A stretch of DNA of 64,000 bases. It comes from a phage. The notes under the pieces are model-generated. The model was not told the DNA's origin and searched no databases. It saw nothing but the letters and a program-made list of their open reading frames with translations. Of this stretch, positions 16,330 to 22,845 are shown piece after piece (the first letter of the stretch is position 1; every line of letters starts with the position of its first letter). The DNA lies in NCBI GenBank assembly GCA_024614665.1, contig GCA_024614665.1_4861.1, one strand, 5' to 3'. Position numbers and translations under genes: made by a program.

Positions 16330-17151
16330 TCAGCGAAGGGCGTCGGTAGTCTTACCGTGAGAGTTAACCACGTAGACTTCGTCGCCTTTATAAAACAGTT
16401 CGTACAACGCACCGGTACTGATCTGGTTATCAGGATCGTATCCAGATTCTTCTTCGATGCACATTGCGCCAATCAGTTCATCGACTGACCGGTCGCCAGG
16501 GCGAGCGCCTTTTAAAACAGTGACAACGCACTCACCATTAACCCATTGTGAGTGTTCCTGGACATCAGTGAACTCGATAGATGGACCAGGCTCTAATTTG
16601 GCTTGTTGCAGTTCTTCCTGAGTGTAGACAATAATCGCCATGTCGCTATCAGGAGACGGCTTGTACCAACCTAATTTTTCTAAGGGCGTACCGAAACCAA
16701 CGAGTTCGCCGCAGATACTATCCATGGCTTCCGGTTCACATAAATTTGTCGCCAGTACCAAGATAGCGTTGCCCTTATTATCTAGCACGTAGCTAATAAA
16801 CTCGCGTGCGTTGCAGTTAAACACCTCGACCGTTTCCAAATCGGGGATAATAAGGTTGGGGAAAAGCTGCCTCAGGTATACGTGAGCATAAAGCTGACTT
16901 GTAGACAGGCGCTGCTGCCAGCTACAATAATCAGACAAATGCATGGTGTTCGGATCAGGCACATCAGGGGCAACGCGTTTTAACCCCGGATTAAGGGCTA
17001 ACTTTTCATCACCGACAACGATGTCGAAGCGCTCGTTCTCGAGCATTTTTAATGCCTCGCGGAATACACGAGACTTACGGTCACCGATACGAACCTTTTC
17101 ATGTTCGGTAATGATACGGTCACCATCAATCACACGTTTAACTGTAAACAT
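16330..17151 (-). CDS. hypothetical protein (273 aa; start moved to internal ATG)
   Basis: ORF track ORF 16330..17523 has a 124-codon Pro/Gly/Arg-rich N-terminal extension with non-protein-like composition that abuts the tRNA-like elements; ATG at 17151..17149 (MFTVKRVIDG) has AAGGA RBS. Confidence 0.5.
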   Translation of the reverse strand: MFTVKRVIDGDRIITEHEKVRIGDRKSRVFREALKMLENERFDIVVGDEKLALNPGLKRVAPDVPDPNTMHLSDYCSWQQRLSTSQLYAHVYLRQLFPNLIIPDLETVEVFNCNAREFISYVLDNKGNAILVLATNLCEPEAMDSICGELVGFGTPLEKLGWYKPSPDSDMAIIVYTQEELQQAKLEPGPSIEFTDVQEHSQWVNGECVVTVLKGARPGDRSVDELIGAMCIEEESGYDPDNQISTGALYELFYKGDEVYVVNSHGKTTDALR

Positions 17152-17526
17152 GTTGCTTTCCTTCTTACTACTATTGCTGCTTCTATTGGTAGTCCACGAC
17201 ATATCCCTCGTGGGTGGGTTCGGTGTGTAACCGAATAAGTTTTTCTGTTCCCAGGGCAACGCACCAGGCTTAATTGATTTAGTTGGCAAACCAGGAACAG
17301 AAAAGGGTGAACAGACCAGGGCGCGAGGTGGCTCTGTAAGGATGCGTAAGAAAAACCCAAACGGCCCTGGTCTGTAATTTGGCCCGAAGTCACCGTGTCG
17401 GAGGACAGCCCATGCAGGTAGGCGGCAATGGACACGGTGACCGCGGAAGTGGTTCGTGTTACCCTTGACCCGTGTGTGGATACGCGTCTTATTTCGAATG
17501 CCTTCGGGATAAGGATAACACAAATG

Positions 17527-17606
17527 GGGCGAGCAAACGGACGGATTCGAACCGTCGAAATATCCGATTATGAGTCGGGTGTTAATTCCTCTAACTTCGC
17601 TGCTCT
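17527..17606 (-). pseudogene. tRNA-like element (degenerate): T-arm GACGG-TTCGAAT-CCGTC and anticodon-arm-like CCGA-CUCAUAA-UCGG (CAU), but no pairable acceptor stem
   Basis: Hand folding of minus strand; anticodon loop identical to elongator tRNA-Met loops; acceptor stem cannot be formed and the variable region is 6 nt. Confidence 0.35.
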
Positions 17607-17675
17607 TGCTTTGACCGGTCTCGAACCGGCGACCTTCCTCAAAGAGGTTGCTCTACCTACCTGAGCTACAAAGCC
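17607..17675 (-). pseudogene. tRNA-like element (degenerate): canonical acceptor, D-arm and T-arm but anticodon arm shortened by about 4 nt
   Basis: Minus strand GGCTTTG-TA-GCTCAGGTAGGTAGAGC...GCCGG-TTCGAGA-CCGGT-CAAAGCA; only 13 nt where a 17-nt anticodon arm is expected; G1-A72 mismatch. Confidence 0.35.
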
Positions 17676-18450
17676 ATTGTAAGGTGCCGGTGCATCCCGG
17701 CGTGTGTTAGTGCAGTCAGCTCCCTCGGGCCTATCTGCGGCAACACGTTGCCCGGCGCACCGACATATACCACAGTAACCTCGTAAAGTCACTCTGGTAT
17801 TGTTCGTTGCATATTACTAAGTTATCACGTAAACGATTTCACCACTTCCAATAATTAACCTAAATTCATTTCTGAATGCAGGTGATGGACTTCTTCTTCT
17901 GAGCCTGGCCATAAGGTCAGGTCTTAGCGTCTCCAAGCACCACCCGCTATCACGTACATTCGTGGCGTACCGGCCGTATGAGGTACCGCGCCTACGGTGA
18001 CACACAGTCACCCTAACACTGGGAACTCAATCCCATTTGATTATCAGATTGTGGATTTACAGGCGTAGCGTAGCGGCTTAATGGGCCGGTGCTTGCCTGT
18101 CCCCTAGGGACGGTTGTCGTGGAGACGCCAGTCTGTAAGTGGGGCCCTTACGGGAAAACCCATCGCCTGTAAACCAAACATGACTGAATACCCAGAACCG
18201 GACGTTTGAAATCAACATCCTGATGTACTGGAGTATTTCATGCATAAACGTGTCTCGTATCGAATGAGGTTATGACCGGTCAGATACCCAGCATCCTGTA
18301 CAAGCGACCTGGTGCTTTGTGTACCTGGCTGCTACGGATTTATCGGTTTACCGTAGGTCTGAGCTGCTACCGGCTCATGCGGGACATCAACCCGCACAAT
18401 CTGAGTAAGTATCATGGCTCGAATAGGGTTAGTGGGCCGAAGCCCACTGT

Positions 18451-18693
18451 TTAGCCAGCATTGAACGATTCATGAACGACGGTCCCAGCAGGATAGTGCG
18501 TAGTGCCGATAAGAGTAACGGTCAGGGTAAGCCCTTCATCCCAGCGCTCTTTCGGTAACCAGCGGCAGTCCATCCAATGACCACAGTCGGGAGGAATTGC
18601 ACACGCGGCTTGCTCCGTAGGAGCCGCCACGATTATGGAATCAAATTCATCGTACCCGATATCGTCAGTTCGTTCTAGCAAGTACAAATTCAT
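18451..18693 (-). CDS. hypothetical protein (80 aa)
   Basis: ORF track; AGGAG RBS 6 nt upstream of ATG. Confidence 0.45.
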   Translation of the reverse strand: MNLYLLERTDDIGYDEFDSIIVAAPTEQAACAIPPDCGHWMDCRWLPKERWDEGLTLTVTLIGTTHYPAGTVVHESFNAG

Positions 18694-18757
18694 GTTGTTC
18701 TCCTACAGTTGACAAATCTGTGTCTTCTGTGTTGAACCTGAATTCGTTGGCTAAATG

Positions 18758-18833
18758 TGGCGGGGGCACGAGGTTTCGAACCTCGAACCTTCGGTTTTGG
18801 AGACCGGTGCGCTACCAATTGCGCCATACCCCC
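18758..18833 (-). tRNA. tRNA-Trp (anticodon CCA), 76 nt, CCA encoded
   Basis: Hand-folded cloverleaf on minus strand: acceptor GGGGGTA/TGCCCCC, D-arm GCGC-AATTGGTA-GCGC, anticodon arm CCGGT-CUCCAAA-ACCGA (as in E. coli tRNA-Trp except a C27-A43 mismatch), T-arm CGAGG-TTCGAAA-CCTCG, discriminator G, CCA. Confidence 0.8.
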
Positions 18834-18926
18834 AGAATTCTTTAAACGTGTTTATACGGATGCGCTACCCCGTTATCGCAGGCGATTGATGGGGTCAAGC
18901 TTGCGTGCTTCTGACTCCCGCATGAT

Positions 18927-19418
18927 TCACCTCCGTAGTTCGTAAGTGCTAATCTCACCACCGGTGTAGATATCGCATTCGGACGCAATCTCAACAGCAC
19001 GAACCGCATTCGCGCCCATCTTCATCGCACCCAACGCGTACTCGTAACCGCTTCCGGTTGCCAGAGGTGGTGTGGCTTCACTCCACCACAACGACACGTC
19101 GTCTTCACGCTTCCCACCGACTATCGCTTTCCCTGAGGCCAGAAGCATCAGGAAAGTAAAATCCATCTTCGCAGGTAACTGCGAGCTTTGTGTTAACCCC
19201 TTGTAGCCGGGTCTCAAGCGGATAGTTTCCAGCAGGGCCAATTGTCCTGTGATGTCGCCGCTTACCCCGAACACCACAATTCGTTCACCGGTAATCCACC
19301 ACTCCTCGTCAGGAGGACAGACGAATAACTTCTGGGTATTCAGGTTGCAGATATTCGACCCACGGGTTAACTGGCCGTCAGCAGCTAAGACTTTTCCATC
19401 GAACGCTATCGTGGTCAT
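18927..19418 (-). CDS. HslV-like Ntn-hydrolase peptidase (proteasome beta-type, 163 aa)
   Basis: N-terminal MTTIAFDGKVLAADGQ matches HslV [20 protein letters not shown] with Thr directly after Met; C-terminal LATGSGYEYALGAMK...ASECDIYTGGEISTYEL matches HslV IAIGSGGPYAQAAARA...AGDICIYTNHFHTIEEL; no HslU-like ATPase in window. Confidence 0.6.
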   Translation of the reverse strand: MTTIAFDGKVLAADGQLTRGSNICNLNTQKLFVCPPDEEWWITGERIVVFGVSGDITGQLALLETIRLRPGYKGLTQSSQLPAKMDFTFLMLLASGKAIVGGKREDDVSLWWSEATPPLATGSGYEYALGAMKMGANAVRAVEIASECDIYTGGEISTYELRR

Positions 19419-19949
19419 GATTTAATTCTCCGTTTGGTTTATCATACCTCACGCAGAATCTGTAAATTTTAATCAGCCAGGTACCGTCGTTTCTCAACGG
19501 GAGTACCCACCCCTCTCGTCTGTTCCGAGCCGCCAAGATTTGGACCAACCTCCTCGTCGGAGTTATCCCCCAAGTCTGCGGTTCTACACGCAGACCCCTT
19601 TTCGACGCAACGCCGAATTCGAATCAGTTTTGGCCCGACGCCAGAGCGGAATCAGCGATAACTATCGGAGGTAAGTTCAACGACGTCTCTCCGCTGCCCA
19701 GTCCTCTGGCGCTGCCACGGTCAACTCGGATTTTGTCATGGGTGCGCAGTCGACTTTCTCGACACTCTCGCAAACCGAACTACGCCCGACGTAGCACCGT
19801 CGGCAGGTCGGTTATTTACCGAGTACCTGAATGGGTGGTGATTGTCGGAATCCCCGCCGACGCTCACCGGTTCTGTTCCACGGCGAAAGTTTTCCAGAAC
19901 ATAATAAATCACGCAGTGTTAGATTGCGCTTTGTCGAAGACACCACGGT

Positions 19950-19990
19950 AGGTATTTTCGAAAAAGCGTCCTGGGTAACAATCCCAGGAC
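19950..19990 (-). terminator. candidate rho-independent terminator inside ORF-free region
   Basis: Minus strand 8-bp stem GTCCTGGG/CCCAGGAC with 7-nt loop followed by GCUUUUUCG; no protein gene upstream of it. Confidence 0.35.
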
Positions 19991-20349
19991 TTGGAGCCCT
20001 AGCGTGCAGGGTTTAAAAGTGATTGGACCATTGGCGCGGTCAATCGCTATTCGCATATAACAACAAACTCACGTAATCAAAAAATTACCGGCTCGAGGCG
20101 TAGGCGTCCAGGAGCCGGTGAGTCACACAGCAGTGAGTCCCTCTGCGGGGATTTTCGTGGAGCTTGTCGTTGGAATAAAAATCCGTCCCCGGACGGGTTG
20201 GTGGTGTGGGTCGACTTGTCAGAGTCTGCCGTCCAGGGAGGCGGCCACCGAAGCTATGGGTTTTGGACATCGAGTGGTGGTCTGAACACACGATAGGGAA
20301 ACCACGTAAAAAATACACAGGGTACCCAAACCAGGACGTCTGTCCGATC

Positions 20350-20545
20350 ACGATCTCTTAATAAGGATCACGCGCGCGCCCGCACGCGTTTTAAGATCTT
20401 AATATATTAATATATTTATTTATATAAATAATTATAATAATTAAATATAATACCTAAAGGTATTATTATATTTAATATTATTATATATTTTAAAAGATCC
20501 TGGAGGATACGGGTGTGCGCACGCGCACGCGTATAAGGAAAGGGT
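20350..20545. promoter_or_regulatory. AT-rich quasi-palindromic element flanked by alternating purine-pyrimidine GC tracts (candidate origin/unwinding element or promoter hub)
   Basis: About 100 bp of nearly pure A/T (20396..20495) with an inverted repeat around TTAAATATAATACC/GGTATTATTATATTTAA; flanked by CACGCGCGCGCCCGCACGCG (left) and GTGTGCGCACGCGCACGCG (right). Confidence 0.35.
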
Positions 20546-21121
20546 CTTCGACCCGATCCACAGGATCGATCTAAAAAACAATCTAAGTGATTGTTTTAAA
20601 AAGAAATTTTGAGAATTAGATTAAATTATCCCCTAAGGGGGATTTTAGAGTGAGTTAAACAACCCAAAGAACTCGTAAGTAACCGACAGTGTGTGTCGGT
20701 TACAGAACGATCCAGTTTTCACCCAGACATGGCACGAAGTGCTACCCAACGTGTGATCGTCGTCGCCGGCCGCGACCGTCACCTCGGAGCCGAAACGGGA
20801 ATGGCACTCTCGCGCTCTCAACGGCCCGCTGGCGCGATTTTCCGGTAGGGGGAACCCAAGTGTACTGGGTCAGGTATAAATCTCGTTCTAGCGCTTTCTA
20901 GAGCGTTTTTAATAACTGGTTAAAAAACATACAATCCTGAATCCACATTCCCTGAATTTCCTCGCCCCGACAAAAATAAATTCTCTGTCTCGATACATAA
21001 CCCCCTCTAAAACGCACGTAACCGACCCTAGAAAACGATAAACTGCCAAAAACGAGCTACCCTACATCCAGACCACTTAATCGTTTTCTGACGTCTCCTA
21101 GACCCCCTTTAACCGGCCGGT

Positions 21122-21184
21122 TAAAAAATAATCAAAAAAAAATAAAAAAAATAAGATTGGCGTACTCCCCGAAGAGAGTACGCC
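21122..21184 (-). terminator. rho-independent terminator
   Basis: Minus strand hairpin GGCGTACTCTC-TTCG-GGGAGTACGCC (11-bp stem, UUCG loop) then very long T-run. Confidence 0.7.
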
Positions 21185-21191
21185 TAGTGAC

Positions 21192-21701
21192 TTAACACTT
21201 GATGGTATAGCCATCAAGGCCAAGGTGTACTGGTTTTATCCATAACCCTGGCTCCCCGAAAATATTCAGGTCGTAAGTTTGGTAATGCATGATCTTTGCA
21301 GGAACATGCACACCCATGCGCTGCAGAAATTCCCAGACGGCGATGTAGCGTTCACGTGTGATGAACATTAACCCGGAGTCGAACCCGGAACCGATGTCTA
21401 AGAAATTACCAAGAGAACTGTCAAAACTTGACACACCATCTTGAGTAAGTGCGACCAACCCTTTAGTTAAATCTCTGTGGTTGTCAATGAAGTTACAGAG
21501 ATCTACGATGGTTATTTGACCGTAAATACGACGGAGGACGGCAGCAACAGCCAAAATCTCGCTGGTATTTCCGTAGTCACCTAAAGGGTTATGGTCCATC
21601 ATCGCAGTAATTATGCTTGTGTCACAGAGGTCGATTAACCGCTGGTCGTGTACCACCAGGTTAAGACCTTGCCCCACCCGCATGGTTGGCGCAGTAAACA
21701 T
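21192..21701 (-). CDS. hypothetical protein (about 169 aa; start moved to internal ATG)
   Basis: ORF track ORF 21192..21746 overlaps the upstream gene; internal ATG at 21701 (MFTAPTMRV) removes the overlap. Confidence 0.45.
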   Translation of the reverse strand: MFTAPTMRVGQGLNLVVHDQRLIDLCDTSIITAMMDHNPLGDYGNTSEILAVAAVLRRIYGQITIVDLCNFIDNHRDLTKGLVALTQDGVSSFDSSLGNFLDIGSGFDSGLMFITRERYIAVWEFLQRMGVHVPAKIMHYQTYDLNIFGEPGLWIKPVHLGLDGYTIKC

Positions 21702-21711
21702 AGGATGCTCC

Positions 21712-22845
21712 TTACGTTTTGACTGACTGTGAAGGTAATCTGGCATCGTACATTAAAAAGATTTCCAGCAGGCTCATACCCGTCGCGTAAAAGATTTGGT
21801 CTGTGATGACACTCACTAACGCTTCCGGGTCTATTGCATCTACCGCAAAATCACTGTCGAACTGCCAGAACTCGACGTCATCCCCCTTTTCAAACATTGC
21901 GGCATATAGTCCAGGTTTTACACCACGCCGGAACGAAAAGAGTTTTGCGTCAGACTCAGTGTCCTTACCATAGATTTCCCCATCAGTCCGTGTGATCGCT
22001 GCACGTTTACACCGAGTTACCGTAAGGAGCGCACGGTTTGCAGATGCTTGCGATTTAAACGGATAGGGGCCATCGTATGTCGGGACATTCTGGTCGCCTA
22101 AGGCATCAAGTGCCTTACTCCGATAGACTACCGGAGACTTAAAATTACACAGTCGATTCCCTTCGGTAAACATTGTGTATTCGACCTTAACGTCGGTACC
22201 GACGAGGTCAGCAGGGGACACTTTGTAGTGTGCTAATTGTCCCTGCACGCGGCGAGAAAGCATCGATGCCAGGAACGTGTGGTTGCCCTGTGTGCGCAAG
22301 ACATACCCAAACTCTGTGCAGTCGATGATACGAGCGTCCATACGTCGTACAGGCTCCAGCCGGTAAGTCACATCATTCGCTTCGATAAGAAACTGACTGA
22401 TGCTAACATCGCGAGATCGATGTTTGATTGCTTCAAACACTTCACCCGCTTCCAGAATGGCTGGTTCAATTACATTGACCTGGAATGGGAGGGGTTTCGT
22501 CGGCCGTTGACCCATTGTTGTCACTGTCATCGAACGTAGCCATGGATCGTCCTCGCTAGGGTCATTGGAAAGCCAATGTGTTAACCAGCGAGAAAGGTTC
22601 TGTGGAATCGTTGCGGTAGAATATAAAATCACGGTACCCATTATGCCTGCATCGGCCAGCAAGCGTGCGAGTACCGTGTTCATCGAATCGTATTTACCAT
22701 TTCGAAGAATAGGTAATCCTCCGACCTGGACCATTTCGCAGATGACGCCGTGCGGCAGCACCCACATCTTCACTTGTTGGGCAGAATGTATCTGTCCCGT
22801 GCGTAGCTTTTCCTGCCACGCGTGCTTACGTTCATAGTTCATCAT
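21712..22845 (-). CDS. hypothetical protein (377 aa)
   Basis: ORF track. Confidence 0.55.
   Translation of the reverse strand: MMNYERKHAWQEKLRTGQIHSAQQVKMWVLPHGVICEMVQVGGLPILRNGKYDSMNTVLARLLADAGIMGTVILYSTATIPQNLSRWLTHWLSNDPSEDDPWLRSMTVTTMGQRPTKPLPFQVNVIEPAILEAGEVFEAIKHRSRDVSISQFLIEANDVTYRLEPVRRMDARIIDCTEFGYVLRTQGNHTFLASMLSRRVQGQLAHYKVSPADLVGTDVKVEYTMFTEGNRLCNFKSPVVYRSKALDALGDQNVPTYDGPYPFKSQASANRALLTVTRCKRAAITRTDGEIYGKDTESDAKLFSFRRGVKPGLYAAMFEKGDDVEFWQFDSDFAVDAIDPEALVSVITDQIFYATGMSLLEIFLMYDARLPSQSVKT

Follow-up and report, generated by a model that had tools for sequence, protein, structure and literature searches.

A phage-specific proteasome homologue, annotated as an HslV-family peptidase, in an SPN3US-like jumbo Salmonella phage

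We analysed a 64,000-nucleotide stretch of phage DNA (contig GCA_024614665.1_4861.1 of assembly GCA_024614665.1; the whole stretch is called the window below) and, within it, a minus-strand gene at positions 18927-19418 that an initial annotation, made from the letters alone, had read as an orphan HslV-like proteasome-type peptidase. The encoded protein is a member of PPH, the phage-specific proteasome homologue family, and not a true HslV. We consider it probable that PPH is an unfoldase-independent Thr1 peptidase with an accessory function in the infected cell. The window derives from an SPN3US-like jumbo Salmonella myovirus of the genus Seoulvirus and is 97-99% identical to its relatives (SEGD1 99.0%, SPN3US 98.9%, SaP7 98.3%), with no phage record above about 99%; its peptidase is 99.4% identical to SPN3US gp1. 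SPN3US gp1 and its orthologues carry the label 'peptidase HslV family' in RefSeq and in several GenBank records. Both this gene annotation and the description of the PPH family were therefore already known, and the absence of HslU beside an HslV-like gene was already in print (PMC7823757). Two corrections to the initial annotation are made here: the protein belongs to PPH, not HslV, and its orphan status varies within the genus.

Family assignment and active site

The open reading frame (ORF) is real; it lies on the minus strand, starts with an ATG at 19418 and reaches its stop at 18927 after 163 codons. Its product opens with MTTIAFDGKVLAADGQ and has every HslV-like motif that had been named for it, with GSG at residues 122-124 and DIYTGG at residues 149-154; starting with MTT, it has no propeptide. 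The gene is well formed and has a good ribosome-binding site. Its features are as follows.

18927..19418, minus strand: coding sequence (CDS) of the PPH-type proteasome/HslV-like N-terminal-threonine peptidase, 163 amino acids plus stop; orthologue of SPN3US gp1 (ACQ60_gp001)
19428..19431, minus strand: Shine-Dalgarno-like GGAG, 9 nt 5' of the peptidase ATG, read directly from the sequence
19410..19415, minus strand: codons Thr2-Thr3, a pair that aligns with Thr1-Thr2 of beta5 and HslV
19377..19379, minus strand: codon Asp14, the Asp17 equivalent, aligned to D17 of E. coli HslV
19329..19331, minus strand: codon Lys30, the Lys33 equivalent, aligned to K33 of HslV
19257..19259, minus strand: codon Gly54, the equivalent of the oxyanion-hole Gly47
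19047..19055, minus strand: codons Gly122-Ser123-Gly124, the Gly128-Ser129-Gly130 equivalent, aligned to the GSG of beta5 and HslV
18957..18974, minus strand: codons Asp149-Ile-Tyr-Thr152-Gly-Gly154, the Asp166...Ser169-Gly170 equivalent, aligned to RDAYSGG of beta5

Searched as a single sequence, the peptidase gave only marginal matches in PDB and Pfam, and a family profile was needed to place it. It scored 13.2 bits against the Pfam Proteasome model (PF00227), below the gathering threshold of 22.4, and 16.6 bits against the NCBIfam HslV models (TIGR03692 / NF003964), whose cut-offs are 137 and 157.75; phrog_1040, in contrast to these, matched residues 1-162 with 132 bits (E 5.5e-38). The profile was built from a first alignment of 51 homologue sequences, in which M1, T2, T3, D14, K30, G54, G122 and G124 are invariant. 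It retrieved 986 representatives of 50%-identity clusters at E<=1e-30, nearly all of them 138-155 aa long and with the match starting at residue 1. Against PDB, it found the proteasome beta5 subunit (E 2.6e-13) and HslV (E 6.7e-12) about equally well, and hhalign aligned it to E. coli HslV (in a sequence with one mismatch to PDB 5ji3) with a probability of 97.2%. Homology to the proteasome at the superfamily level is thus clear, both by profile (E 2.6e-13) and by fold. Because the protein falls far under the HslV cut-offs, because beta5 is equally close and because helix H2 is absent, it is not a true HslV; as to the enzyme itself, an HslV-like Thr1 peptidase, the earlier reading is largely correct.

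Among the 22 new proteasome homologues described by Fuchs, Alva and Lupas (2021; PMC8665760) is PPH, a family of about 140 residues found in Caudovirales and prophages. They describe PPH as having no propeptide, no S12/H5 and no helix H2, the last a loss otherwise seen only in RPC. The window protein agrees with this description in its family model, compact size, MTT start, lack of a propeptide, of H2 and of the C-terminal S12/H5, retained catalytic triad and Gly47, and membership of a family carried by tailed phages and prophages of Proteobacteria. The comparison was with the features in the published family description. The window protein differs from other PPHs in its greater length (163 aa, where the family median is about 150), which is due to three lineage-specific insertions (residues 38-47, 68-72 and 102-105), and in having Thr65 where the family has a conserved Trp (161/183).

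Other close relatives differ from it as follows. Like HslV (ClpQ; MEROPS T1B), it has an N-terminal Thr nucleophile directly after Met, but it lacks about 25 residues including H2, so that part of the pocket for the HslU tail is gone, and its gene is not adjacent to any hslU. The H2 gap lies opposite residues 70-98 of E. coli HslV in both the MAFFT and the hhalign alignments. Compared with 20S proteasome beta subunits (PF00227, especially beta5), it is without propeptide, H2, C-terminal helix and alpha-type partner, and a search with the peptidase itself found no second proteasome-like gene in the window. BPH, which has both apical helices and a long acidic pore loop, and Anbu, which has a long C-terminal helix, are not phage-borne.

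The active site is intact. In the profile-PDB alignment, Thr1, Asp17, Lys33, Gly47, Gly-Ser-Gly and Asp166...Ser169-Gly170 are all in register, and their conservation was counted over 183 family representatives less than 50% identical to each other. The nucleophile at position 2 is Thr in 181 and Ser in two, so that all 183 have one or the other, and position 3 is Thr in 182; an MTT start is found in 179 of 189 family members. The Asp17 equivalent is D in 182/183, while the Lys33 equivalent, the Gly47 equivalent, Gly122 and Gly124 are each invariant (183/183). Between the last two, the middle position is Ser in 163 and Thr in 14 (177/183 together). The Asp149 position holds D in 170 and N in 12 (182/183), the Thr152 position T in 117 and S in 66 (183/183), and the two positions that follow are Gly in 175 and 169 of 183, respectively. 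The initial annotation of a proteasome-type peptidase is thereby borne out: the protein is an N-terminal nucleophile (Ntn) peptidase with intact Thr1, Asp17 and Lys33 equivalents and no loss of the catalytic Thr or Lys. Since the catalytic residues are invariant or nearly so across the family, the window PPH is almost certainly an active Thr1 peptidase.

A confident AlphaFold model of the protein (AF2; pLDDT 92.7, pTM 0.88) has the proteasome-type alpha-beta-beta-alpha Ntn sandwich, with a single helix (residues 56-67) between the sheet halves, a lower-confidence loop after it (residues 68-86) and only one strand after H4 at the C-terminus.

Relation to HslU

The statement that the gene has no HslU partner proved true of its surroundings and too broad for the phage group. 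No AAA+ gene was found in the 64-kb window by a Walker-A scan or by tblastn with E. coli HslU (in a sequence that matches Salmonella HslU at 97%) and Erwinia phage ChrisDB gp132. Seoulviruses differ, however, in an HslU-like AAA+ gene about 100 kb away from the peptidase gene, which is intact in some of them, truncated in others and deleted in others again. In many jumbo phages of Erwinia, the same tblastn queries detect an AAA+ protein of 580-587 aa, with an AAA domain split by a large insertion, as in HslU, and with 44% identity to residues 1-105 and 38% to residues 245-409 of E. coli HslU. Its homologue in phage RAY, gp116, is reported to be expressed and to localise to the phage nucleus (bioRxiv 10.1101/2023.02.24.529968).

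SPLA3 carries an intact copy of the gene (OR413581, 115433-117193; L004:3501-5261), about 103 kb from PPH. In MET_P1_082_240 the match extends over the whole query and is annotated hslU, and the more distant Salmonella phages STsAS and SPAsTU match at lower identity. In SPN3US and SaP7 it is cleanly deleted, the flanking genes gp150 and gp149 abutting (SPN3US NC_027402 103093-103184; L021), and it is absent, as judged by span, from SEGD1 and the better-assembled SPFM records. JN03 retains a 75-aa N-terminal remnant with Walker A (MT799840 105688-105915; L002:3501-3728), followed by an unrelated 335-aa ORF, and a match pattern of the same short span is seen in Lh1B, EC001 and SPLA1a. This polymorphism of presence, deletion and truncation occurs among Seoulviruses that are otherwise 95-99% identical, and being an 'orphan' is a property of the window that varies within the genus. 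PPH itself is 97-100% identical in at least 15 genomes in which the ATPase gene is cleanly deleted or truncated. Of the 202 Salmonella-phage records that have PPH, no more than 12 show any HslU-like match at all, and no AAA+ neighbour of PPH was found in the small siphoviruses examined, small siphoviruses being most of the family. PPH has been retained while the ATPase gene was lost or truncated, and it is therefore maintained independently of the phage ATPase; as far as these genomes indicate, PPH does not depend on that enzyme.

HslV-like genes without HslU had been remarked upon in the 2020 genome paper of pSal-SNUABM-04 (PMC7823757). The 'HslV at ORF 116' of that phage may be the HslU-like gene, as its gene number matches RAY gp116.

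Beside the HslU-like locus lies a gene for a 160-aa protein (L004:5342-5824 in SPLA3; SPN3US gp149) that is called a 'head maturation protease' through phrog_7478. It was considered as a second proteasome-like subunit and rejected, with an hhalign probability of 0.2% and no Pfam match. The label itself looks doubtful, since the prohead protease established by experiment in SPN3US is gp245.

The pocket for the HslU tail is incomplete in PPH. In E. coli and H. influenzae, HslU's C-terminal tail enters a pocket between HslV subunits that is formed by Phe54, Phe57 and Gln114 together with Ala79 and Lys80 of H2 (PMC6429459), and the antepenultimate Phe441 of HslU (Tyr in some lineages) is strictly conserved and critical for HslV activation (PMC4106860). 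The window protein has L60 in place of Phe54, at a position that varies in the family, and the hydrophobic L63 in place of Phe57. Most PPHs have a gap where Gln114 would be, and the H2 segment with Ala79 and Lys80 is deleted; the docking surface is the least conserved part of PPH. Of the phage HslU-like proteins, that of SPLA3 has the C-terminus ...HAWTENA and that of ChrisDB ...TLRRISD, neither with an aromatic residue at the antepenultimate position. Because the PPH pocket is incomplete and the phage HslU-like proteins are without the canonical tail, the alignments weigh against canonical HslUV-type docking with either a host or a phage ATPase.

Proposed activity and its alternatives

We suggest that PPH works as follows. 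Host methionine aminopeptidase would remove Met1, as is permitted by Thr at residue 2, and so expose Thr1. The Thr1 hydroxyl would then attack peptide bonds, the amino group of Thr1 together with Lys33/Asp17 serving as proton relay and Gly47 forming the oxyanion hole; these steps follow established proteasome and HslV chemistry. Inside the infected cell, the enzyme would act with no phage unfoldase dedicated to it, probably on peptides, on unfolded chains or on a restricted set of proteins of the host or the phage. Its role would be accessory rather than core, in host takeover or counter-defence; SPN3US matures its heads with another protein, gp245 (PMC10052503). Taken as a whole, we regard this as the best explanation and a probable one.

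Several points weigh against it. Our literature search found no biochemical or genetic study of any PPH or of SPN3US gp1. Isolated HslV is nearly inactive without HslU (PMC6429459), and for that reason PPH, too, might require an activator if it stands alone. Divergence from the family is seen in the window protein (Thr65 and the three insertions mentioned above), and its fold comes from a single-chain prediction. Lastly, selection on the peptidase is not demonstrable, since its codons differ too little from those of close relatives (six synonymous and four non-synonymous differences from SPLA3).

Two of the alternatives keep an ATPase partner. That PPH is a functional replacement for HslV on the host HslU hexamer, redirecting ATP-dependent proteolysis, had been put forward in the initial annotation; it is weakened by the loss of Ala79 and Lys80 with H2 and by the variable Phe54 and mostly missing Gln114 positions, as well as by the very low score with the HslV models (16.6 bits against 137 and 157.75) and a family as close to beta5 as to HslV, and we consider it quite unlikely. 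No better placed, in our judgement, is the idea that PPH partners the phage HslU-like ATPase about 100 kb away in a phage HslUV-like machine, and is a relic in SPN3US-type genomes after loss of the ATPase. The HslU-like AAA+ gene does occur in Machinavirus and is intact in the Seoulviruses SPLA3, MET_P1_082_240 and SPAsTU, all of which have PPH, and both its resemblance to parts of HslU and the expression of RAY gp116 and its location in the phage nucleus are consistent with such a machine. Set against this are the near-identity of PPH in genomes with a deleted or truncated ATPase gene, the fact that the two genes are never adjacent, ATPase tails without the antepenultimate Phe/Tyr of HslV-activating HslUs (PMC4106860), and a mismatch in Erwinia phages, where 46 records have the ATPase and 23 have PPH.

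Two further alternatives were weighed. A catalytically irrelevant decoy or scaffold, which would titrate host HslU or poison HslV rings by co-assembly, was also raised in the initial annotation, and co-assembly with host HslV is conceivable given the homologous fold. There is no direct evidence for it, a decoy could dispense with the active site that PPH keeps (Thr1, Asp17, Lys33, Gly47 and Gly-Ser-Gly are 99-100% conserved in the 183 representatives), and it is the HslU-docking surface that is least conserved; we think this explanation extremely improbable. Somewhat less remote, and still very unlikely in our view, is a connectase-like role, in which PPH would be a sequence-specific processing enzyme or a transpeptidase/ligase and not a degradative protease. 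Proteasome homologues can be monomeric ligases, connectase being an example (PMC8665760), and the loss of H2 may preclude stacked rings; the RNA-repair or NAD-salvage genes that neighbour PPH in some phages, and the tRNA genes that do so here, suggest a specialised accessory role. The preferred reading, of an unfoldase-independent peptidase, can also be carried further: PPH could be a stand-alone protease in an H2-less, non-canonical assembly that destroys a specific host factor (e.g., an immunity or tRNA-targeting protein), with the HslU-like polymorphism among 97-99% identical Seoulviruses reflecting an optional second module that alters substrate range through non-HslUV docking. We hold this extended form to be unlikely.

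Genomic surroundings, distribution and significance

The features downstream of the peptidase gene, given here as context and not as part of it, are the following.

18758..18833, minus strand: tRNA-Trp (CCA), called by ARAGORN; Rfam tRNA 65.6 bits
18451-18693: 80-aa ORF, phrog_5444, unknown function
17606-17675, minus strand: weak tRNA-like element, Rfam tRNA 38.1 bits
17532-17603, minus strand: weak tRNA-like element adjacent to the last, Rfam tRNA 30.6 bits

The tRNA-Trp lies 94 nt 3' of the peptidase CDS on the same strand. A terminator scan of the interval found no terminator-like site between them, and because no such hairpin intervenes, it is plausible that the peptidase gene and the tRNA-Trp share one transcript. 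A promoter scan limited to sigma-70 found 5 sites against 5.4 expected. The scan is uninformative about the initial annotation's placing of the gene at the head of a transcription unit, since phiKZ-like phages use their own RNA polymerases for transcription (RAY preprint, bioRxiv 10.1101/2023.02.24.529968).

Upstream of the peptidase gene, 1.77 kb (window positions 19419-21191) is poor in ORFs and contains at least six minus-strand terminator-like hairpins (21184-21159, 20643-20628, 20554-20542, 20389-20370, 20196-20183 and 19990-19968); across 17000-21800, 16 terminator-like sites were found against 4.4 expected. It also holds an AT-rich palindromic block at about 20400-20490, and the arbitrary start of the SPN3US GenBank record maps into it, at about window position 20603. 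No Rfam family matched this stretch, which could be a source of small RNA or a regulatory or replication region. Some relatives have extra DNA in the 5-kb region around the peptidase, about 0.8 kb in SPFM, SPLA5c and SPLA1a, and on a contig of ERR10789613 a 191-aa ORF with no Pfam match (L019:9429-10004) abuts the peptidase start codon; the ORF-poor region here shows an insertion polymorphism.

Downstream of the 80-aa ORF is a second stretch poor in ORFs (17524-18450, about 0.9 kb), and nothing was identified in it beyond the two tRNA-like elements at its 3' end. Their scores are just above the Rfam tRNA gathering score of 29 bits, and ARAGORN calls neither. The SPN3US annotation has one tRNA in the area 17532-17675, as 'tRNA-OTHER', and other relatives have tRNA-Asn, tRNA-Ile or tRNA-Asp. 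The two elements may be degenerate or atypical phage tRNAs.

Among the Seoulviruses compared, PPH is 96.9-100% identical. The identical 163-aa protein recurs on at least 25 contigs, mostly of about 220-243 kb, in assemblies of Salmonella enterica isolates or sequencing runs (SRA/ENA), and many further contigs, at least one of them in an E. coli assembly, have near-identical variants that fall into the same 90%-identity cluster. Ten isolate or metagenome contigs with the identical protein were compared with the window; none equals it throughout, and the best differs by 224 mismatches over 20.5 kb. Given this recurrence, Seoulvirus genomes often turn up in the sequencing of cultured isolates, which points to carriage, pseudolysogeny or contamination.

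Beyond the genus, PPH is carried by phages as different as Jerseyvirus, 48-kb Klebsiella phages and jumbo phages, and the metagenomic contexts examined are phage-like. No conserved gene neighbour was found in the other phages and the one metagenomic contig examined, and a PADLOC scan gave no match for PPH. In Rhodobacter phage RcXuper (84291-92746), a PPH homologue directly follows RNA ligase and polynucleotide kinase genes and precedes NAD-salvage genes; in Klebsiella phage VLCpiS13a, a small gene annotated 'polynucleotide kinase' is near PPH, with one small ORF between. With the tRNA genes that adjoin PPH in the window, the association with RNA-repair or counter-defence islands is loose and recurring.

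Phages also appear to carry several distinct proteasome-like lineages besides PPH, to judge from predicted structures. In BFVD, 42 clusters of predicted viral structures have a proteasome-like fold (E<=1e-3). Many of these matches are 170-280-aa proteins of other large or jumbo phages, and those in Noxifer, Special G, Moabite and RP12 have 12-22% identity.

PPH, which has been called the proteasome family's first truly viral branch, is widespread: it was counted in 321 phage records and forms about 1,000 sequence clusters. As SPN3US is a jumbo phage amenable to genetics, gp1 is a reasonable entry point to the role of PPH, for which natural Seoulviruses with and without the HslU-like ATPase provide a ready-made comparison.
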